A DNA stretch of 58,508 nt, filler included, from Candidatus Woesearchaeota archaeon (GTDB taxonomy: Archaea > Nanobdellota > Nanobdellia > Woesearchaeales > GCA-2685855), in NCBI GenBank assembly GCA_002685855.1. It is 3 parts of 3 records of this genome, joined end to end, with 100 filler letters (N's around TTAATTAATTAA, not from the genome) between each part and the next. Parts side by side here need not be neighbours in the genome. Positions count along the whole stretch, not along the records: positions 18,613 to 42,407 come from NYYS01000051.1; 2 more parts are not named here. One strand, written 5' to 3'. Below, piece by piece: positions 7,980 to 42,507 of this stretch. A program made the position numbers and the translations under genes. A model generated the notes under the pieces. It did no database searches, had not been told where the DNA came from, and saw only the letters and a program-made list of their open reading frames with translations. Within the stretch, counting starts at the first letter, position 1. The number at the start of each line of letters is the position of its first letter.

Positions 7980-8855
7980 ATGGCTCAGACTACTCTGACC
8001 AATAAGGCTCCTGTCTATCCTCAGGGTGATGAGGAATCGATTCAGGCGTTTCAGAAGTTTCTTCTTGCATGGTATGAGAAGAATGAACGAGATCTTCCTT
8101 GGAGGAAGACGAGAAATCCGTATAAGATTCTTGTTGCTGAGACAATGCTTCAGCAGACGCAGATTGCTCGTGTTATTCCTAAGTATGAGCGTTTTCTTAG
8201 TGTGTTTCCTTTGTTACAGGATCTGGCAGAGGCTGAGACTACGTTGTTGTTAAAGGAGTGGCAGGGGTTGGGTTATAATAGAAGGTGTTTGGGTCTTCGT
8301 GTGATTGCGCAGCAAATTATTCGTGATTTTGGGGGGATTTTTCCTCGGAAGTATGACCGTCTTCTTGAGTTGAAGGGGATTGGTCCGTATACTGCTTCTG
8401 CTCTTTGTAGTTTTGCTTATAATCAGGATGTTGCGTGTCTGGATACTAATGTTCGACGAGTGTTAATTCATACGTTTACGTTACGGGAGAATTGTTCTCA
8501 GGGAGAGCTGCAGAGGTTGGCTGATCTATTAGTTCCGATTGGAAGGTCGAGGGTATGGAATAATGCGTTGATGGATTATGGGAGTTTGCAGCTGACTGCA
8601 AAGTTTACCGGGATTCAGAGTTTGGGAAAGCAGTCGAAGTTTGAGTTTTCAAAGAGGTGGTATAGGAGCAGGATTGTTCGGGAGGTGTTGAAGGTTGGGG
8701 AGATCTCTCTTGACGAGTTGAGTGTTGTTGTTGAAAGGAGTAAGGAGTATGTGCGTTCGCTTGTGAGTGAGTTGGTTCTTGAGGGTTTTTTGCGGTTGGA
8801 AGGGGAGCTTGTTGGGATAAAGGAGGATCGGTTTGTAGGTGGGAAGGAGGATTAA
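7980..8855 (+). CDS. MutY-like HhH-GPD adenine glycosylase lacking Fe-S motif
   Basis: RDLPWR, ETMLQQT (catalytic Glu), WQGLGYNRR, HhH LKGIGPYTA, LDTNVRR (Asp); start moved to MAQTT. Confidence 0.85.
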   Translation: MAQTTLTNKAPVYPQGDEESIQAFQKFLLAWYEKNERDLPWRKTRNPYKILVAETMLQQTQIARVIPKYERFLSVFPLLQDLAEAETTLLLKEWQGLGYNRRCLGLRVIAQQIIRDFGGIFPRKYDRLLELKGIGPYTASALCSFAYNQDVACLDTNVRRVLIHTFTLRENCSQGELQRLADLLVPIGRSRVWNNALMDYGSLQLTAKFTGIQSLGKQSKFEFSKRWYRSRIVREVLKVGEISLDELSVVVERSKEYVRSLVSELVLEGFLRLEGELVGIKEDRFVGGKED

Positions 8856-8935
8856 TGTGATGGAGATTAGGGGAGAAGGGTTGAAGTAAGGGATAGAGTG
8901 TTTAGAAGGAACTGATTATTGTGTGGATGTGTTGG

Positions 8936-9271
8936 TTAATCAAAGTAGAGAGGGTCGTCTGATCGTATGATGAATTCGTTTTGTTTTTTTTGGTCTTCTT
9001 TTTTTGTTTCTTTTTTTAGTTGAAAGGCGTTGGGGTTGAGTTCGCAGAGTTTTGACCAGGAGACGGGTCCACAGGAGAGGCAGAGTCCGAAGACGCCCCA
9101 TTTTCCTTCTTTGATCATGAGCCATTCTCCGCAGACGCATTTAAGGTCGGTTGCTTCTTGGTTTTTGTGTTGGGAGCAGACAGGGATCTGCTGGCTGTTT
9201 TTTGTGAGGGCTCTGCTCTGGCAGAAGGGGCAGGTGTCGACTCTGTAGCTTCCGTAGACTTTTTTTCTCAT
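8936..9271 (-). CDS. Cys-rich zinc-binding hypothetical protein
   Basis: CPFC, CSQH, CVCG, CLSC motifs. Confidence 0.7.
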   Translation of the reverse strand: MRKKVYGSYRVDTCPFCQSRALTKNSQQIPVCSQHKNQEATDLKCVCGEWLMIKEGKWGVFGLCLSCGPVSWSKLCELNPNAFQLKKETKKEDQKKQNEFIIRSDDPLYFD

Positions 9272-9352
9272 GGTTTTGCGGTTAGGGGGGTTATTTAAAT
9301 AGGTTTTGTGTGTGGGGAAAAGCTTTTTATAGGGTGTGATTCAACCTAGGAT

Positions 9353-9937
9353 ATGGCACATCGTGATAGAGAGCAGAAGCGGGAGAAGAGAAACAGGTTT
9401 TGGATGAGTATTGTTCTTATCTTTTTTATGGTTATTGGGATATTTGGTGTGTTTCAGTCAGGAAGTGAGAAGGAAATTTCAGAGTACAAGGAGTACAAAT
9501 TCGAGAAGATTAATGGCATTTATTATGTTGAGATAGACGGGTATCTGAGAGGATTTAATTTTTTTCCAACACGGCTCGTGAATATTAGTGTTGAGGGATA
9601 TGTGAAAAATGTATTTGATAATGCGCAGATGGTTATTTATGCCTTTGATCCGAATTCAGGAACTCTGAGAAGTGTTGATCAGGTGCGGTATGATCTTTCG
9701 GTGAATCTTCCGAAGAGTTCGTATAGTGTTACTACAAAACAGGATCCGATTTACCAGCTTCCTGTTGGTGATTGTTTAAACTCGACCTATCCTATTCCGG
9801 TTATTCTTTTTGAGGAGTCTGAAGAGGTAGGGATTGTTGAGGATAATAGTTGTATCCGATTGAGGGGAAACAGTAGTGATTTTTATCTTCTAAGAGATCG
9901 GTTGTTGTATGAAGTTTTTGGTGTTATGAATGGTTGA
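9353..9937 (+). CDS. Membrane-anchored hypothetical protein
   Basis: Basic N-terminus, TM helix, extracellular domain ending DRLLYEVFGVM. Confidence 0.75.
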   Translation: MAHRDREQKREKRNRFWMSIVLIFFMVIGIFGVFQSGSEKEISEYKEYKFEKINGIYYVEIDGYLRGFNFFPTRLVNISVEGYVKNVFDNAQMVIYAFDPNSGTLRSVDQVRYDLSVNLPKSSYSVTTKQDPIYQLPVGDCLNSTYPIPVILFEESEEVGIVEDNSCIRLRGNSSDFYLLRDRLLYEVFGVMNG

Positions 9938-10841
9938 AAAAGAGATATTAGATAAGGAAGATATTGATGTGGATTCTAAAAAGAAAGGGAAACGTTCTGT
10001 GAAGAAGAAAGTTCAAAAGAAAAAGTCGGGGAAGGTTGGGGATGTTCCTAATAAAAAAGGGATGAAAGGTGAGGAGGGAAGAAGAGGAGGCGGGGAAGAA
10101 GAAACTGCATCTCTAACAGAGGGGGAGAGGATAGATGGCGAGGAAGATTTTGGTGGGAAGAGTGATGATTCTGTTTCACAAGATGTGAAAGGGGAAGAAT
10201 CTGATCGTTTTGATGAATCTGAGGAGGATTCTGTTTCTGCTACCTATCTTCTTATTGGTGTTGCTGGGTTAGTTGTTTTGTTTTTTGTTTTCTTTTTTGT
10301 GGGGAAAGCGATAATGCCTTCGCCTGCGGAGTCAGAGACTTCGTATAATGGTTTTAGTTTTGTTGAGCAGGCGCCTTTCTGGATGACACAGGTTCAGATA
10401 GGTAATCAAAGGAGTACGATTCCATTCTATTTTCACCCTAAGGATCTTGAAGAAATTAATTATGAGGCGGGTTCTGCTTTGAAAATATTGGAGCTCCCTC
10501 CCGAAGGGAGGGTGTTTATTACCCTTGATCCGGATGATGCTACTGCGAAGGTTGCGATTGCAGGGGTTGAGATAAGCAAGATTATAGGTACAAAGAATAA
10601 TTTGTTAAATATTGAAACCCATTCTGCAACGACTGAATCCCGGGAGGATATTGCGGGTTATCCTGTGAAGACTTGTGCTGATGCGAATGATTTTACCGCT
10701 ATTGTATATTTGAAGAAGGGAGACTGGACTCTTATTTCTACTGAGGGTAATTGTATTATTGTTGAGGCGCGTAATGATGAGGACTTGCTAAAAGCTGCAG
10801 ATCGTTTAACGTATGGTCTTTTGGGGATTATGGAACCATGA
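9930..10841 (+). CDS. Membrane-anchored hypothetical protein, paralog of upstream gene
   Basis: Charged disordered N-terminus, TM, domain ending DRLTYGLLGIM. Confidence 0.75.
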   Translation: MVEKEILDKEDIDVDSKKKGKRSVKKKVQKKKSGKVGDVPNKKGMKGEEGRRGGGEEETASLTEGERIDGEEDFGGKSDDSVSQDVKGEESDRFDESEEDSVSATYLLIGVAGLVVLFFVFFFVGKAIMPSPAESETSYNGFSFVEQAPFWMTQVQIGNQRSTIPFYFHPKDLEEINYEAGSALKILELPPEGRVFITLDPDDATAKVAIAGVEISKIIGTKNNLLNIETHSATTESREDIAGYPVKTCADANDFTAIVYLKKGDWTLISTEGNCIIVEARNDEDLLKAADRLTYGLLGIMEP

Positions 10842-11428
10842 CTCATTATTTTGATGAGAAGCAGAAGAGTTTACTTCGTCCAAAAATAGTTAGTTATTCG
10901 CGTGATGGTGTTGAGTTTTCTTTTAAGACAGGATCTGGTGTGTTTGCAAAGGATAAGGTTGATAGGGGGACGGATGTTCTTCTTACTCATATGCGGCTTC
11001 CTGATTCAGGGAGAGTGCTTGACTTGGGTTGTGGGTATGGTGTTGTTGGGATTGTGGTTGCGAAGCGAGGCGGATATTCTGTGGTGTGTAGTGATGTGAA
11101 TGAGCGGGCTGTGAAGTTGTGTAGATTGAATGGGAAGAGGAATGGTGTTGAGCTGGAAGTTGTGAAGAGTGATCTGTTTTCTGGTGTTGAAGGAGTGTTT
11201 GATTGTGTTCTGTTGAATCCTCCGTATGTTGCGGGGAGGAAGTTAGTGTTTCAGATGCTTGTCGAAAGTTTCGAACATCTTCATACAGGTGGCACGTTAC
11301 AGGTTGTTGCGCGGCACCAGAAGGGAGGCAAGGCGATCCGGGATCGGATGGAGGAGATATTTGGGACTGTTGAGGATGTTGGAAGAGGGTCAGGGTTTCA
11401 TTTGTATGTGAGTAAGAAGAAGGATTAG
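10838..11428 (+). CDS. Class I SAM methyltransferase (RsmC/MTS-like)
   Basis: HYF, SGVFAK..VDRGT, VLDLGCGYG, NPPY. Confidence 0.88.
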   Translation: MTHYFDEKQKSLLRPKIVSYSRDGVEFSFKTGSGVFAKDKVDRGTDVLLTHMRLPDSGRVLDLGCGYGVVGIVVAKRGGYSVVCSDVNERAVKLCRLNGKRNGVELEVVKSDLFSGVEGVFDCVLLNPPYVAGRKLVFQMLVESFEHLHTGGTLQVVARHQKGGKAIRDRMEEIFGTVEDVGRGSGFHLYVSKKKD

Positions 11429-18512: not shown

Positions 18513-18612
18513 NNNNNNNNNNNNNNNNNNNNNNNNNNNNNNNNNNNNNNNNNNNNTTAATTAATTAANNNNNNNNNNNNNNNNNNNNNNNNNNNNNNNN
18601 NNNNNNNNNNNN
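18513..18612. other. Artificial contig-joining spacer
   Basis: N runs flanking TTAATTAATTAA (stops in all frames), 100 bp. Confidence 0.97.
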
Positions 18613-21783: not shown

Positions 21784-22523
21784 ATGAAGCTTAAAAATAA
21801 AGTCGCAATCATTACAGGCGCGAGTAGAGGGATTGGAAAATCAACCGCATTACTTTTTGCAAAAGAAGGTGCAAAAGTGGTAGTTAATTATTTTTCTTCT
21901 GAAAAAGACGCACTTTCTGTGGTTGATGAAATTAAAAAAATAGGTTCAGAAAGTATAGCTGTTAAATGTGATGTCTCAAAAGAGAATGAAGTAAAAGCAA
22001 TGATCCAAAAAACCATAAAAACATTTGGAAAAATTGACATTCTTGTTAATAATGCAGGGATAGTTTTTGATGTTCCCTTTTTTAAAAGAACTGTTGAACA
22101 ATGGAAACAAACCCTGGATATTAATTTACTAGGAACATTTCTATGTAGTAAATATGCTTCTGAACAAATGTTGAAAATAATTACGGAAAAATAATTAATA
22201 TTTCTTCAACAAATGGGATTAATAGTTTTAGTCCTGAAGCAATGGATTATGATGCTTCAAAAGCAGGAATAATAATCTTAACCAGAGATTTAGCAAAAGA
22301 ACTTGCTCCAAAAATTCAAGTTAATTCAGTTGCTCCTGGCTGGGTAGATACGGAAATGAACAAAGACCTGACAAAAGATTTTGTTAATAAAGAAACAGAG
22401 AAAATTTATCTAAAAAGATTTGCCGAACCTGAAGAAATAGCGAAATCCATTTTGTTTTTAGCTTCAGATGATGCAAGTTATATTACTGGAAGTGTTCTAA
22501 AAGTTGATGGTGGATATGATTGA
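21784..22523 (+). pseudogene. Short-chain dehydrogenase/reductase (FabG-like), frameshifted
   Basis: TGASRGIG and NNAG in first frame; GKIINISS, YDASK, PGWVDT in second frame; one missing A at 22174-22177 would rejoin them. Confidence 0.85.
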
Positions 22524-22616: not shown

Positions 22617-23072
22617 CTATTCTACCTGCAACTTAATCCGTTCTGGATCATACTTCCAACTAACAGCCAACTTACCTGTCCGCTTGTAATACTTTGCAAG
22701 ACGATTAATCTTTGACTCAGTCAATTGAAGCCCACGCTTCCCAGGCATATCCTTATGATTCACTGCCATATGCTTTCTGATCAGAACAGCCTTCTTGATC
22801 AACGCCATCAGATCCTCTGGAATCTCCTTGAGCAACTTCCGTTCCGCAAGAATCTCGGTAACAGCCTTCTTTGTAATGAGTTTCACATCAGGAATACCAT
22901 ACACATCTCTAAGATATGTTCCAATCACGCTCGGACTCTTTCCTTCCTTTGCATACTTCACAACCAAAAGCTCCGCCTCCTTCCCCTTGTACTGTAGCCA
23001 GGTAGGCGCCTTTTTTTCAATTGGCTTTGTAGAGCCAGATACTCCTTTCTTTCTTGAATGCATTCGTGCCAT
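22617..23072 (-). CDS. rps15: 30S ribosomal protein uS15 (archaeal S15/S13e)
   Basis: MARMHSRKKG, LRDVYGIPDV, PEDL, LTESKINRLAKYY. Confidence 0.96.
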   Translation of the reverse strand: MARMHSRKKGVSGSTKPIEKKAPTWLQYKGKEAELLVVKYAKEGKSPSVIGTYLRDVYGIPDVKLITKKAVTEILAERKLLKEIPEDLMALIKKAVLIRKHMAVNHKDMPGKRGLQLTESKINRLAKYYKRTGKLAVSWKYDPERIKLQVE

Positions 23073-24100: not shown

Positions 24101-25600
24101 ATGTCCAAAAAAGAGTTTTTCAGGGAAATGGGAAGAACAGCACTCACATTCGATGACGTACGACTACAAACAGGCTATTCAAGGGTACCACCTCAACAGG
24201 TCAACCTCGAATCGAAATTCTCAAGAAACATCCCATTAAAAATTCCTCTTGTATCAGCAGCAATGGACACAGTAACAGAATATCAAATGGCAATAGCCCT
24301 GGCAATGGAAGGCGGCCTCGGCATCCTTCATCGCAACCTCTCAAAAAAAGAACAGGCAAAACAGGTCGCAAGAGTAAAAAACAGACTCAACGCACTGAAC
24401 GGCCTTAAGGACAAACCAATAACCGTACAAGAAGAGATGACAATAGAACAGATACTCCAGATGAAACACAGAAAAGACTTTCACTTCGACAGCTTTCCAG
24501 TACTCGATGAAAACAGGAAACTTGTAGGCATCCTGACAGGAAACGACTTTGACCTCTGTGATGATTACACTCTCACAGCAAAAGCAGTCATGAAAACAGA
24601 TCTCATAACAGTACCGACAGGAACACCTTTTGAAAAAGCCTACGAACTCATGAAAAAGGAAAGCAAAAAAGCAATTCCCATCATCAACAAAACAGGCGAA
24701 CTTGTCGGCCTCTATGTACATAAAGATCTTAAAGCAATCAAAGATGGAACTGCCAAAAAATATAATGTGGACAACAAAGGCAACCTTCGTGTTGGAGCAG
24801 CTGTAGGTGTAGGTGAGGACGCATTTGAACGTTGTGAACTCCTACTACAAAAAGGAGTCGATGTAATCGTTATCGACACAGCACATTCAGACACGCTATC
24901 AGCAATACAAACCGTCGAAGAACTAAAAAGAAAATACTCAGTAGACCTTGTTGTCGGAAACATCTCCCAACCAGAATCCGCAAGAAGACTAATAAACGCT
25001 GGTGCAGACGGCATAAAAGTAGGCCAGGGAGGAGGATCGATCTGCACAACAAGAGTCGTATCAGGGTACGGCCGCCCTCAAGTAACAGCAATCTACTGCT
25101 GTGCAGAACTTGCAAGACAATTCGATATCCCTGTCTGTGCAGACGGAGGCCTACGCTATTCAGGTGACATCCCCATTGCTATCGGAGCAGGTGCCCACTC
25201 TGTCATGATGGGAAAACTCTTTGCAGGAACAGATGAAGCACCCGAAGACATCATCTACTATCAGGGAAGACAATGGAAAAAATTCAGAGGAATGGGCTCC
25301 ATGAGTGCAATGCGTGAATCAAAAGGATCCCGAGATAGATACAACCAATCAGAAAAAGAGGAGGATCTTGTTCCTGAAGGAGTAGACACCCTCGTCCCCT
25401 ATAAAGGATCTCTCCACGCAACTATTGTTCAGCATCTCGGCGGCCTCAGAAGCGGAATGGGTGCAGTTGGTGCAGCAAACATAGAAGAACTCCAACAAAA
25501 AGCAGACTTCGATCGAATTACACAATCAGGACAAACAGAATCCCACCCCCACGATGTTCACATCATAGAAGAAGCCCCAAACTATTCTCCAGGAAGATAA
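24101..25600 (+). CDS. guaB: IMP dehydrogenase (with CBS pair)
   Basis: LTFDDV, SAAMDTV, GSICTTR (catalytic Cys), ADGG, RGMGS, flap DRY, PEGV. Confidence 0.95.
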   Translation: MSKKEFFREMGRTALTFDDVRLQTGYSRVPPQQVNLESKFSRNIPLKIPLVSAAMDTVTEYQMAIALAMEGGLGILHRNLSKKEQAKQVARVKNRLNALNGLKDKPITVQEEMTIEQILQMKHRKDFHFDSFPVLDENRKLVGILTGNDFDLCDDYTLTAKAVMKTDLITVPTGTPFEKAYELMKKESKKAIPIINKTGELVGLYVHKDLKAIKDGTAKKYNVDNKGNLRVGAAVGVGEDAFERCELLLQKGVDVIVIDTAHSDTLSAIQTVEELKRKYSVDLVVGNISQPESARRLINAGADGIKVGQGGGSICTTRVVSGYGRPQVTAIYCCAELARQFDIPVCADGGLRYSGDIPIAIGAGAHSVMMGKLFAGTDEAPEDIIYYQGRQWKKFRGMGSMSAMRESKGSRDRYNQSEKEEDLVPEGVDTLVPYKGSLHATIVQHLGGLRSGMGAVGAANIEELQQKADFDRITQSGQTESHPHDVHIIEEAPNYSPGR

Positions 25601-25615
25601 AAGAGAAAACGAAAA

Positions 25616-27373
25616 ATGAAAACAGCAACATCTGAACAACCAACACTTGAACTTGATCAAAGAGTCCTCGAAGCATCTGACTATTTAAGAACCTGTCTTC
25701 GAATACCCGAACTAGATTTCCCCATCAAAGCACGCTATGCAATCGCATCAGAACAGGAAGTCCTCCACCCCATCATCCATAACAACGACGTTATCGCAAT
25801 CGTCGGAGCCTTTTACGGTGATGAAGGAAAAGGAAAACTGATCGACGCAGTCGCACACCATCCTCTCATTCAACTAATCATGCGTGCAAACGGCGGAGAG
25901 AATGCAGGCCATACCGTCTTCCTGAATGGTGTTGAATACATCTTCCACCTTACCCCTTCAGCAATCCTCGTACCCGACAAAACCTGTCTCATCGGGCAAA
26001 ACTGCGAGATTGATCCCCTCACCTTTATGCCGGACGAAATCCAGCCATTACAAAAAGAAGGAATATCCCTCGACAAACTCTTCATAGGCAATGCACACAT
26101 CGTAACACCCTATCATAAACTCATGGACCTTATCGGAAACCCAAAAAACACATCCACACTTCGGGGAATGGGACCCTCCCATGCCTCAAAAGCCGCAAGA
26201 AAAGGACTCCGCCTCAACGACCTCTATCTCTCGGAAAAAGAACAGGCATGCTACCTCCTTGAGGACATGCGATCCTATGAGGGACTCCTTCACACTCTCA
26301 GCATATCCGAATCAGAACTCATTGATCGCTGTAGAGAACTCAACACATCCTTCAAACGCATCCCCGATCATGTCATCCAATTCCTCAGGGAAAAAGATAA
26401 AGTATCCTTCCTCATCGATCTCTACCAAAAAACAGTAACCACAAACAGCGACTTTCCCAAACAAGTCAACTCTACACAGCTCCTTAATGAAACACTCGAA
26501 CAAGGAAAAAAGGTTCTCCTCGAAGGATCCCAGGCACGCATGCTCTCAAACGCTGAAGGAACCTGCTGGAGAAAAAGCACCTCTGCAGACACAACAGCAG
26601 CAGGACTCATCGCAGCAGCAGGATACAATCCCACAAAATATGGAACCGCAGTAATTAACGTTGCCAAGTTCCCCTCTTCAAAGGTCGGTGCAGGACCAAA
26701 CCCGACAGCCTATGTTCCCCAAAACTTCTTTTCATCGAGGAACGTTGAAACACTCGATGACATCGTAGATGTATGTGATGACTTTGACGCAATCCAGAAA
26801 AAATTCTTTGAATCAATACGGGATAATGGAACAATGTTCGAATCAACCTATACAGACAAAGACGGAAGAACCTATGCAATCAGTGCAGCAATGGCAATCG
26901 CCTCCTCACGCCACCATAAAGAAAGAGGAGCAACAACAAAAAAACCCCGCATTACCGGACTCTTTGACTGTGTCGTCCATCACAGCGTCAACCAGGCACA
27001 AGGACCTCTCCTCGCAATCAATGCCCTTGACAGAGGAGACGACTACGACAACGTAGGAATCACCATAGCCTACATCGTCTACAGCCCCGAAGGCGAGCTA
27101 ACAGCAGATGGAAGAACCTATAAAACAGGAGACATCATCAAAGCAGGCCAACCCCTTCCAAACGAAACAGTACTCTCAAAATGCTACAAGATCATGCGCG
27201 TCCTCCCAGGCTGGAAAAAAACACCTCTTAAAAATCTAAAACCCACAGACCCTCTTCCCCCGGAAGCAGAACACTATATCGGAGCAATAAAACTCTACAC
27301 AGGAGCAGACCCCATCTCTATGGGGACAGGAACAGGCAACAAAGATATACACTATCTAAAAAGAACAAACTAA
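25616..27373 (+). CDS. purA: Adenylosuccinate synthetase, long divergent form
   Basis: GDEGKGK, NAGHT, LEGSQ, GATTKKPR, LPGW; 585 aa with N-terminal extension and insertions. Confidence 0.9.
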   Translation: MKTATSEQPTLELDQRVLEASDYLRTCLRIPELDFPIKARYAIASEQEVLHPIIHNNDVIAIVGAFYGDEGKGKLIDAVAHHPLIQLIMRANGGENAGHTVFLNGVEYIFHLTPSAILVPDKTCLIGQNCEIDPLTFMPDEIQPLQKEGISLDKLFIGNAHIVTPYHKLMDLIGNPKNTSTLRGMGPSHASKAARKGLRLNDLYLSEKEQACYLLEDMRSYEGLLHTLSISESELIDRCRELNTSFKRIPDHVIQFLREKDKVSFLIDLYQKTVTTNSDFPKQVNSTQLLNETLEQGKKVLLEGSQARMLSNAEGTCWRKSTSADTTAAGLIAAAGYNPTKYGTAVINVAKFPSSKVGAGPNPTAYVPQNFFSSRNVETLDDIVDVCDDFDAIQKKFFESIRDNGTMFESTYTDKDGRTYAISAAMAIASSRHHKERGATTKKPRITGLFDCVVHHSVNQAQGPLLAINALDRGDDYDNVGITIAYIVYSPEGELTADGRTYKTGDIIKAGQPLPNETVLSKCYKIMRVLPGWKKTPLKNLKPTDPLPPEAEHYIGAIKLYTGADPISMGTGTGNKDIHYLKRTN

Positions 27374-29570: not shown

Positions 29571-31049
29571 CTATAACCTATAAGGAATCTGAATCCGAAA
29601 CACCGTGCCCTTTCCCTCCTTTGATTTAACAACAATATCCCCGCCGTGCAAGTCAACAACCTTCTTCGCAATACTCAACCCCAATCCAGATCCTCCCTGC
29701 ACCCGGGTTAGATAATGCTCGGCCTGATAAAACTTATCAAACAATTTCGGAATTGCATCCTCCGGAATACCCTTCCCTGTATCCCTAATAACAAGCTCCC
29801 AACACTTATCCATCTTCTTCGTACTAAACCTTACAGACCCTTTATCAGTAAACTTCACAGCATTTGAAAAAATATTCGTAACAACGTGCCGAAACCGCTT
29901 CTCATCTACCAACACCTTCATCCGCTTTGGAATTGTATTCTTAACCTTGAGCTTTTTCCTCTTTGCCAGATTCCTGAAAATATTGCGCTCCACAAAATCA
30001 TACAACCCAACCTTTTCCACACACAATGCAGCCCCCTTCTGCTCCAGCTTCGCAAGCCCAAGCACATCATCAATCATCATCCCCAATCGAGTAGCCTCAT
30101 CCTCAATAATAAGCATCTGATCCCTCTGCTTCTTTTTCAGCTTCCCAAACTTCCCATCCTTCAAAAGAGAACTATACAACTTAATACTCGTCAACGGCGT
30201 ACGCAGTTCATGACTAATCACAGAAACAAACTCCTCCTTCATCCTTCCCAACTCCTTCTCATGCTCATACTTCTCCTTAGTCTCACTCAACTGCTCCCGC
30301 AAATGCGCCTTATCAGACAACTTCAAATACACAATCCGTGTAAACAACAAAACAGAAATCAAAGGAAACGGATGCGCCAACACCTCCAACGCAGGATTCC
30401 GATTCATATAAAACACAATATTTATCACATGAATAAACGGCGTAATAGCATACACACACAAACCCAAAATCGTATGTATTCTATACTTCCCAAACAAAGA
30501 AGAATCCTTCACCATAAAATAAACAGGAACCATCAACAACACAACCTTCACAACCTCAAGAAATAGAAACTCTCCACTCTGCTGAAAGTGAATACTTCCC
30601 CTATCAAAAAGCCAAAACAGATGCATCACACAAATAAATACCAGTCCCGCAATCAACTCAAGAACAACCTTTCGCTTCACAAAAGGATACTGCTTCTTCA
30701 AATGAGGAAACAGAAACCCGTTCGTCAAAATAACTAAACCCAACACCTCCAAACTCACAAGCGAAGGAATAATCAGCGTATGCCTCTCAATAAATCCGCT
30801 CCCTCCAAAAACTGCATATGCATACAACCCTGTAAGCACCAACTTCTGCACAGCAAAAAAACCAAACGCACACTGCAACAAACGAAGATGCTTACTCTTA
30901 TTACGCAAATACTCTGATGTAATCATATACGTAATCAGAAAAAAGAAAAGCGTCTCTATTCCAACCTTAAAAAATGTCCCTGCATCAGTAGATAAAAACG
31001 TGTTAAACCTGTGAATAACATCAACACTTAGACTCAAGAAATAACTCAT
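29571..31049 (-). CDS. Membrane sensor histidine kinase
   Basis: About 7 N-terminal TMs; SHELRTPL (H box), NAVKF, DTGKGI, GSGLGL. Confidence 0.93.
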   Translation of the reverse strand: MSYFLSLSVDVIHRFNTFLSTDAGTFFKVGIETLFFFLITYMITSEYLRNKSKHLRLLQCAFGFFAVQKLVLTGLYAYAVFGGSGFIERHTLIIPSLVSLEVLGLVILTNGFLFPHLKKQYPFVKRKVVLELIAGLVFICVMHLFWLFDRGSIHFQQSGEFLFLEVVKVVLLMVPVYFMVKDSSLFGKYRIHTILGLCVYAITPFIHVINIVFYMNRNPALEVLAHPFPLISVLLFTRIVYLKLSDKAHLREQLSETKEKYEHEKELGRMKEEFVSVISHELRTPLTSIKLYSSLLKDGKFGKLKKKQRDQMLIIEDEATRLGMMIDDVLGLAKLEQKGAALCVEKVGLYDFVERNIFRNLAKRKKLKVKNTIPKRMKVLVDEKRFRHVVTNIFSNAVKFTDKGSVRFSTKKMDKCWELVIRDTGKGIPEDAIPKLFDKFYQAEHYLTRVQGGSGLGLSIAKKVVDLHGGDIVVKSKEGKGTVFRIQIPYRL

Positions 31050-31414
31050 CGCATAAGCACTTGCTTCACAACATGAAGAAGTTCATCAGCTTCAAACGGT
31101 TTCATAATGTAATCATCAGCTCCGAGCTTCATTCCATCTGCCTCATCCCTATCAGCAGTCTTGCTCGTAACCATAATTATCTTTGTTGCCGCAAGATCAG
31201 GATCTTCCCGAACATGCTTACAAACCTCAAAACCATTCATCTTCGGCATCATCACATCCAGCACAACAATATCTGGCTTCAACTCCTTGATCTGATTCAA
31301 CCCCTCCTCGCCATCACGCGCCAATGTAACACTATACATATCTTTAAGAATAAGTTGTTCTGCCTCTGCAATACGGGCATCATCCTCTACGATTAAGACA
31401 GTTGGCTTCATCAA
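31046..31414 (-). CDS. Single-domain response regulator
   Basis: IVEDD, LDVMMP, VTS, KPF; ATGA overlap with kinase. Confidence 0.93.
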   Translation of the reverse strand: MMKPTVLIVEDDARIAEAEQLILKDMYSVTLARDGEEGLNQIKELKPDIVVLDVMMPKMNGFEVCKHVREDPDLAATKIIMVTSKTADRDEADGMKLGADDYIMKPFEADELLHVVKQVLMR

Positions 31415-42407: not shown

Positions 42408-42507
42408 NNNNNNNNNNNNNNNNNNNNNNNNNNNNNNNNNNNNNNNNNNNNTTAATTAATTAANNNNNNNNNNNNNNNNNNNNNNNNNNNNNNNNNNNNN
42501 NNNNNNN
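42408..42507. other. Artificial contig-joining spacer
   Basis: N runs flanking TTAATTAATTAA, 100 bp. Confidence 0.97.

Follow-up and report, generated by a model that had tools for sequence, protein, structure and literature searches.

How does an archaeon with a very small genome come to encode an adenylosuccinate synthetase resembling that of Leishmania and Trypanosoma? The gene that raises this question, a long-form purA, lies on a 58,508-nt stretch of DNA from Candidatus Woesearchaeota archaeon (GenBank assembly GCA_002685855.1), referred to here as the window. The window consists of three contigs (C50, C51, and C53) of one genome, joined by runs of N at 18513-18612 and 42408-42507, and the gene sits on C51 (window positions 18613-42407; NYYS01000051.1). 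The host is a DPANN-type archaeon whose assembly comprises 953 kb in 66 contigs, 94% complete and 0.86% contaminated. A first-pass annotation had likened the product of this open reading frame (ORF) to the divergent adenylosuccinate synthetase (ADSS) of kinetoplastids and proposed a prokaryotic donor or a cross-domain transfer. We present here an analysis of the gene, which probably encodes, to judge from its sequence, a functional GTP-dependent ADSS of a long-form subfamily that underwent a single ancient transfer between domains. The protein belongs to the PurA family, in a subfamily so far known from kinetoplastids, and the evolutionary link to archaea is apparently unreported. Full-text literature searches, which did not reach subscription-only papers, found no paper linking euglenozoan ADSS to archaea, and the accessible part of the Bodo saltans virus (BsV) genome paper names the ADSS gene only in a list.

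The ORF is as first described, and its translation contains all of the motifs then listed: GAFYGDEGKGK..DAVAHHP (aa 64-83), GENAGHT (aa 94-100), IVTPYHKLMDL (aa 162-172), STSADTTAAGL (aa 321-331), VPQNFFS (aa 367-373), AMAIASSRHHKERGATTKKPRITGLFDCV (aa 425-453), and ALDRGDDYDNVGITIAYIVYSPEG (aa 470-493). The protein scores 252.2 bits against PF00709 (cut-off, 27), with aa 61-577 spanning profile positions 1-414 of 416. It is the product of the only PF00709 gene in the host genome. Solved canonical PurA aligns to it in three separate pieces only. Archaeal long copies are already automatically annotated as adenylosuccinate synthetase in databases.

Relatives were collected with a word-indexed search of 5.8 billion proteins, which gave 319 matches among 8000 scored candidates. 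The best 120 of these are all full-length (529-861 aa) and share 41-55% identity with the query. Among these 120 are 8 proteins labelled archaeal by NCBI (Woesearchaeota, Nanoarchaeota, or "archaeon"), 1 labelled Bacteroidota, 16 from named kinetoplastids, 1 from BsV, and 7 from EukProt transcriptomes. The kinetoplastids are Bodo saltans, eight Trypanosoma species, Leishmania, Leptomonas, Herpetomonas, Strigomonas, Novymonas, and Porcisia. A cluster look-up assigned the EukProt proteins to the diplonemids Diplonema ambulator, D. japonicum, Rhynchopus, Flectonema, and Sulcionema, the euglenid Entosiphon, and the bodonid Neobodo. The window protein shares 44-47% identity with kinetoplastid ADSS, including that of Leishmania major, over 94-99% of its length, so that the resemblance noticed at first holds. 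The label "trypanosomatid-type" fits as far as trypanosomatids go but is too narrow, since the form also occurs in diplonemids, Entosiphon, Neobodo, and Bodo. In a HMMER pass over 1.84 billion cluster representatives, a clear gap separated long forms, matched in a single full-length stretch with more than about 250 bits, from canonical PurA of about 430 aa, where the match breaks into three pieces and does not exceed 171 bits.

Within the archaeal order of the host, the long purA lies inside near-closed genomes, for example, G016 (one 1.3-Mb contig) and G199 (1.0-Mb contig). The proteins of two further same-order genomes, G173 and G194, are identical to proteins labelled Nanoarchaeota and Woesearchaeota by NCBI. 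In family f47, the long form is found in 5 of 42 genomes, and these sequences cluster at 100/100. Archaeal long forms differ from one another and from the window protein down to 33-38% identity. A scan of genome contigs was swamped by canonical PurA through the shared GDEGKGK motif, with long forms making up 3 of the 80 loci kept (L002 to L004). A metagenome scan with an alignment of the sister sequences of Euglenozoa recovered the contig of P0058 (as L117) and L116 and did not recover the 110-kb contig of P0014 itself.

Three trees were built. FastTree was run on 248 rows, made up of 157 long forms (at least 480 aa) and 91 canonical or intermediate sequences (390-530 aa) from the HMMER pass. 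IQ-TREE was run under LG+C20+F+G4 with posterior mean site frequencies (PMSF) on 72 chosen rows, and a further tree was built from the 64 rows left after 8 long-branch rows were dropped. In all three, the long forms group together to the exclusion of canonical PurA, with support of 100 (FastTree), 100/100 (IQ-TREE, 72 rows), and 100 (64 rows). The first-pass annotation had called for a phylogeny including kinetoplastid, DPANN, and giant-virus homologues and had said that placement among canonical PurA, apart from kinetoplastids, would count against it; the window protein falls instead in the 100/100 clade with kinetoplastid ADSS.

Euglenozoa and BsV form one clade (100/96; IQ-TREE, 72 rows) in which the euglenid branches off, then the diplonemids, and then the kinetoplastids. 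Since this branching mirrors the species tree in both FastTree and IQ-TREE and the form is pan-euglenozoan, any transfer predates the euglenozoan radiation. The successive outgroups to this clade are P0013 with P0017, labelled Woesearchaeota (99/93), P0014 (100/91), and P0058 (99/87), whose 66.6-kb contig encodes an archaeal tRNA-splicing endonuclease and a TrmB regulator. The remaining archaeal subclades form a polytomy around the group that contains Euglenozoa. Euglenozoa are also nested within archaeal long forms in the FastTree tree and after removal of the long branches (95, 88, and 97). In the 72-row tree, the canonical outgroup joins at a basal cluster of four sequences without taxon labels (P0145, P0138, P0140, and P0143), which lie on contigs of up to 515 kb; when 401 same-order genomes were searched with P0138, no match exceeded 45% identity. 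Minimum-variance rooting, which uses no outgroup, selects the same branch as the outgroup does and places the euglenozoan stem 1623rd among 2478 root positions. The BsV copy (P0077) is nested in kinetoplastids beside Bodo and Neobodo in all three trees. A giant-virus source does not fit this placement; because it is nested there, the viral gene looks captured from a kinetoplastid host. One ancient cross-domain transfer of the long form between archaea and Euglenozoa is thus well supported, and this part of the early proposal stands. The direction that it suggested is less settled: maximum-likelihood (ML) trees and minimum-variance rooting favour an archaeal donor, but the alternative survives an approximately unbiased (AU) test.

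Transfer from an archaeon to a euglenozoan is favoured, not established, and we lean toward it with some reserve. The fuller scenario would have a Woesearchaeota-like archaeon pass its long ADSS to a euglenozoan ancestor, with a later capture by BsV from a kinetoplastid. We regard as evenly balanced the specific proposal that a Woesearchaeales-like DPANN archaeon gave the gene to the euglenozoan common ancestor, where it became that lineage's ADSS, the enzyme that aminates allopurinol ribotide in Leishmania. In the reverse course, the long form would have arisen on the euglenozoan stem from a eukaryotic ADSS and entered a Woesearchaeales-type archaeon in a single capture, the recipient perhaps having lived with euglenozoans or close to them, before it spread patchily in that order. 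We consider it unlikely, though not negligible. It is opposed by the outgroup, which falls within the archaeal part of all three trees, by the three supported branches behind which Euglenozoa lie, and by the outgroup-free root, which also falls away from Euglenozoa. Diversity among archaeal copies exceeds the archaeon-euglenozoan distance, and guaB-purA synteny is spread over several archaeal subclades.

Several observations weigh against an archaeal donor. In the archaeal order the long form is rare and patchy: when one relative per family was sampled, 2 of 40 had it, and among 401 sampled genomes, that of the window (G000) included, it occurs in 15. The usual state in same-order relatives is a PurA of canonical length or no PurA at all. 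Every named euglenozoan retrieved has the long form, and by distribution alone this pattern fits transfer from a eukaryote to an archaeon. In the AU test, a tree holding the 44 non-euglenozoan long forms as one clade, as the reverse course requires, was not rejected (delta lnL, 29.2; p-AU, 0.17), for a group that was defined after the tree had been seen. The root moves within the archaeal part between analyses: after the 8 rows were dropped, the outgroup shifted from the P0145 group to the window's branch. Long-branch warnings came from both FastTree and IQ-TREE, and fast-evolving DPANN sequences could attract the outgroup. The ultrafast bootstrap was still short of full convergence (correlation, 0.982), and most metagenomic rows carry no taxon label, which bears on direction.

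The partner enzymes offer no parallel. Among the named relatives of GuaB, and likewise of the PurB domain of genome G276 (described below), in the best 120 of 8000 scored candidates, no euglenozoan was found; DPANN archaea, candidate phyla radiation (CPR) bacteria, and other bacteria appeared instead. Co-transfer was therefore dropped, as only PurA shows a euglenozoan link among the matches listed.

The simplest artefact would be a euglenozoan or viral contig mis-binned into an archaeal metagenome-assembled genome (MAG). The genome is indeed a MAG in many contigs, and the window joins three of them by N runs. This explanation is nevertheless highly improbable and was rejected on composition, archaeal markers, and homologues in near-closed genomes of the same order. 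C51 carries a uS15 gene of archaeal/eukaryotic type, encodes a DHH-CID protein, and has its genes packed compactly in prokaryotic fashion. By tetranucleotide profile it ranks 10th of the 66 contigs in closeness to the bin, and within it the guaB-purA segment does not stand out in composition (fraction, 0.418). Homologues lie within the single- or few-contig genomes G016 and G199, and no euglenozoan sequence is more than 47% identical to the window protein.

Some labels and contigs among the relatives deserve separate mention. P0026 (labelled Bacteroidota bacterium by NCBI; 41-kb contig) and L002 and L003 (labelled uncultured Methanosarcinales archaeon; genomes of 2.2 and 1.4 Mb, respectively) encode proteins that nest among those of the window's own order, in conflict with their labels. 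Wrong labels, mis-binning of the MAGs, or further transfers may lie behind the conflict. Two metagenome contigs of 26.5 and 9 kb (L156, at 8001-11078, and L157) carry a long-form ADSS homologue with 31-59% identity per piece. In L156 it is spread over at least 7 exon-like pieces in different frames across about 3.1 kb, which looks like an intron-bearing eukaryotic genomic copy.

Residues were mapped by alignment to Escherichia coli PurA (1ade numbering), and conservation was counted over the 157 long forms and the 91 canonical or intermediate sequences (Table 1). In the E. coli enzyme, Asp13, Lys16, His41, and the other mapped residues have catalytic or substrate roles. PDB titles among the fold matches show that the mutants K16Q, R143L, and R303L were studied. 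The equivalents of D13, K16, N38, T129, Q224, and R305 are present in all 157 long forms, and those of T239 and D333 are present in 156. The first-pass annotation had noted KKPR in place of the canonical arginine loop and ALD in place of TKLD, and the alignment agrees. In the aspartate loop, E. coli G302-R303-R304-R305 is replaced by KKPR through G302 to K442, R303 to K443, and R304 to P444. In the guanine motif, NALD stands in place of T330-K331-L332-D333. Bacillus anthracis PurA has NSID there, and the lysine is thus not universal in canonical PurA either. K443 is found in 151 of 157 long forms (R303 in 90 of 91 canonical sequences), A470 in 146 of 157 (K331 in 77 of 91), and P444 and R445 in 157 of 157 each. 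Lysine at the R303 position is the rule in the subfamily and a conservative change. At the R143 position, lysine occupies 146 of 157 long forms and arginine all 91 canonical sequences, with the window protein among the 11 long forms that keep arginine. The positions of R303, K331, and R143 are thus clean markers of the subfamily.

The His41 column holds arginine in the remaining 9 long forms. NTGRT replaces NAGHT in a single archaeal subclade, which includes the PurB-fusion protein (L003, L004, L093, L094, L095, P0130, P0132, P0133, and P0136); this subclade may have an altered mechanism or be an inactive paralogue.

The extra length of the window protein lies in an N-terminal extension (aa 1-58) and in insertions at about aa 205-283, 366-434, and 487-515. 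Occupancy of these four segments is 0.82-1.00 among the archaeal (n = 26), named euglenozoan (n = 23), and remaining long forms (n = 108), versus 0.09-0.52 in the 91 canonical or intermediate sequences. An AlphaFold2 (AF2) model from a 30-sequence alignment has a predicted local distance difference test score (pLDDT) of 90.7 and a predicted TM score (pTM) of 0.90. Helices are modelled at aa 7-24, 31-34, and 46-55 of the extension, and the aa 366-434 insertion is structured (block pLDDT, 85-97). Foldseek matched the model to more than 20 solved PurA entries (E, 1e-24 to 7e-33; TM(target), 0.79-0.87; identity, 21-25%). No long-form structure was seen among PDB matches by sequence or by fold.

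Table 1. Coordinates and supporting evidence for the long purA, its mapped residues and segments, neighbouring genes, and a related fusion ORF
Feature	Location	Strand	Evidence or remark
Long-form adenylosuccinate synthetase (PurA/ADSS), 585 aa	25616..27373	+	ORF with ATG start; PF00709 1e-74; AF2; Foldseek; tree
N-terminal extension (aa 1-58), mostly helical	25616..25789	+	Occupancy 0.82-0.85 in long forms vs 0.09 in 91 canonical/intermediate
P-loop GDEGKGK (aa 68-74); D13=D69, K16=K72	25817..25837	+	1ade alignment; D and K in 157/157 long forms
NAGHT (aa 96-100); N38=N96, catalytic His H41=H99	25901..25915	+	N in 157/157, H in 148/157 long forms
T129=T181			Kept (1ade alignment)
R143 (from partner subunit)=R195			Kept
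Q224=Q306			Kept
T239=T322			Kept
V273=V357			IMP-site residue, kept
Main subfamily insertion (aa 366-434, ~55 aa beyond E. coli 282-295)	26711..26917	+	Occupancy 0.97-0.99 in long forms vs 0.20 in canonical
Aspartate/IMP loop GATTKKPR (aa 438-445)	26927..26950	+	T300/T301=T440/T441 and R305=R445 kept
Guanine-recognition motif NALD (aa 469-472)	27020..27031	+	K331 to A470; D333=D472
guaB, IMP dehydrogenase with CBS pair, 499 aa	24101..25600	+	PF00478 3e-141 plus CBS; TIGR01302 496.4 bits vs cut-off 481.5
guaB-purA spacer, 15 nt, A-rich	25601..25615	+	TAA stop ends at 25600, ATG at 25616
Ribosomal protein uS15, contig lineage marker	22617..23072	-	PF08069 (S13/S15 N-domain) 2e-22 plus PF00312
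PurB-long PurA fusion ORF	L097:3820-7152 (G276:C1, 573-kb contig)	-	Consecutive steps of IMP-to-AMP synthesis

Comparison with known enzymes places the window protein beside the kinetoplastid one. The ADSS of Leishmania donovani, L. major, Trypanosoma brucei, and T. cruzi is colinear with it, and the euglenozoan enzymes share the N-terminal extension and the three insertions (occupancy, 0.84-1.00) as well as the signature K443, P444, R445, and A470 (23 of 23 named euglenozoans). They differ in being longer (582-861 aa versus about 570-630 aa for archaeal ones), in carrying lysine where the window has R195, in having valine at T440 in 15 of 23, and in being encoded by stand-alone eukaryotic genes, whereas the archaeal gene lies in a guaB-purA operon. 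Canonical PurA (E. coli 1ade; B. anthracis 4m0g and 4m9d; about 430 aa) has the same fold, catalytic Asp/His pair, P-loop, inosine monophosphate (IMP) contacts, and guanine-specifying Asp. It lacks the N-terminal extension and the insertions and has R303, K331, and R143 where long forms carry K, A, and K, respectively. The short archaeal PurA of Pyrococcus horikoshii (about 340 aa; 5k7x and 2d7u) belongs to the same family (E, 3e-23) and stands at the opposite extreme of size, with 19% identity and a TMq of 0.48-0.49 to the window protein. The phage succinoaminodeoxyadenylate synthetase PurZ/DgsS has a PurA-like fold but only 11-16% identity and a TMq of 0.37-0.45.

The gene upstream of purA is guaB, and the first-pass annotation had called the pair operonic. 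The short spacer agrees, and so does conservation of the arrangement: going by crude ORF calls, a guaB homologue immediately precedes the long purA at 8 of the 17 other archaeal loci, and one also does so in metagenome locus L116. The sequence thus implies co-transcription, which would express both IMP-consuming first steps together. Two other genomes place the long form beside the lyase that follows it in the pathway. In G276, a 1110-aa ORF fuses PurB (Lyase_1 plus ASL_C; aa 122-460) to a long PurA (aa 555-1105), and in G016 a Lyase_1 gene adjoins guaB-purA.

The window protein is most likely a working GTP-dependent ADSS, to judge from its residues, fold, and orthologues. A canonical PurA core, elaborated by a helical extension and three insertions, would join IMP to L-aspartate in the usual GTP-dependent reaction, forming adenylosuccinate by 6-phosphoryl-IMP chemistry with the help of the conserved Asp/His pair. 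We infer this activity because the catalytic residues are conserved, because of the PurB fusion, and because of kinetoplastid genetics. According to PMC10208901, which cites Boitz 2013 and Mony 2014, Leishmania comes to rely on adenine or adenosine once ADSS or ADSL is knocked out, knock-down slows T. brucei, and knock-out or knock-down of ADSS in Leishmania and T. brucei blocks synthesis of adenosine monophosphate (AMP) from IMP. Leishmania ADSS accepts allopurinol ribotide in place of IMP and the human enzyme does not, as stated in the corresponding part of PMC3940079 (citing Spector 1984), a hint that the altered loops may matter.

The same tolerance belongs to the case for a shifted function, in which the protein would be a PurA-fold ligase acting, as PurZ/DgsS does, with another nucleotide, amino acid, or energy donor; such a shift could explain the absent lyase. 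Relaxed specificity in the subfamily is what the Leishmania enzyme's use of allopurinol ribotide suggests (PMC3940079, in part), and the changes in the aspartate loop and the guanine motif, R303 to lysine, G302 to lysine, and K331 to alanine, mean that specificity could differ. The protein also falls under every NCBIfam PurA equivalog cut-off (209 versus 402 for NF002223; 207.6 versus 395.55 for TIGR00184), a shortfall that is as expected of a separate subfamily outside the curated canonical set. The pathway around it is incomplete: no Lyase_1 (PurB), GMP_synt_C (GuaA), Pribosyltran, or SAICAR_synt (PurC) domain was found in the window genome at 94% completeness, with controls detected in 14 of 14 cases each, and a tblastn search of that genome with the PurB domain of G276 returned nothing. 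Lyase_1 is present in three of five near-complete carriers and the GuaA C-terminal domain in four, leaving two without a PurB. These points weigh against a plain ADSS. We nevertheless consider a shifted function improbable. The Asp that specifies guanine is conserved along with the residues for catalysis and IMP contact, the PurB fusion of G276 and the neighbouring Lyase_1 of G016 tie the clade to the IMP-to-AMP route, and the kinetoplastid orthologues are genetically ADSS (PMC10208901, in part). Identity with PurZ/DgsS itself was rejected, as the protein scores 63.1 bits against a cut-off of 300 (NCBIfam PurZ) and PurZ/DgsS structures are distant, ranking below all PurA structures.

A working ADSS thus remains the preferred reading, in a genome that encodes both IMP-consuming first steps without detected second steps. 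Because no PurB was found, the product of the window PurA has no identified consumer there; an assembly gap, dependence on a host, or an unrecognised enzyme may account for this. The earlier statement that guaB and purA cover both IMP branches therefore holds for the two genes, but the PurB, GuaA C-terminal domain, phosphoribosyltransferase, and PurC steps are not in evidence.

Other features of the window were recorded. A histidine kinase (HisKA plus HATPase_c, with a multi-pass N-terminal region) is encoded at 29571-31408 on the minus strand, a few kb downstream of purA, with a stand-alone receiver domain nearby, in a host whose genome is very small. A short-chain dehydrogenase is split into two adjacent plus-strand ORFs at 21784-22194 (136 aa) and 22242-22523 (93 aa), which match the N- and C-terminal parts of adh_short profiles, respectively, and look like a frameshift, pseudogene, or assembly error. 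GC skew changes sign near 18 kb, at the first contig join, an orientation artefact and not a replication feature. A tRNA scan of the window found none.

Kinetoplastid ADSS is a purine-salvage enzyme that is discussed as a drug target, and its substrate tolerance underlies the selectivity of allopurinol (PMC3940079 and PMC10208901, in part). The presence of the same subfamily in DPANN archaea explains why the parasite enzyme is so unlike that of its host: it is not the canonical eukaryotic enzyme. The finding documents an exchange between DPANN archaea and a whole eukaryotic phylum, together with a secondary capture by a giant virus, and puts compact prokaryotic orthologues on offer for structure and inhibitor work. 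If the favoured direction is true, a core nucleotide enzyme would have passed from DPANN archaea to eukaryotes in ancient times, and the archaeal orthologues, being small and free of introns, would lend themselves naturally as structural and biochemical stand-ins for a drug target of the parasites.

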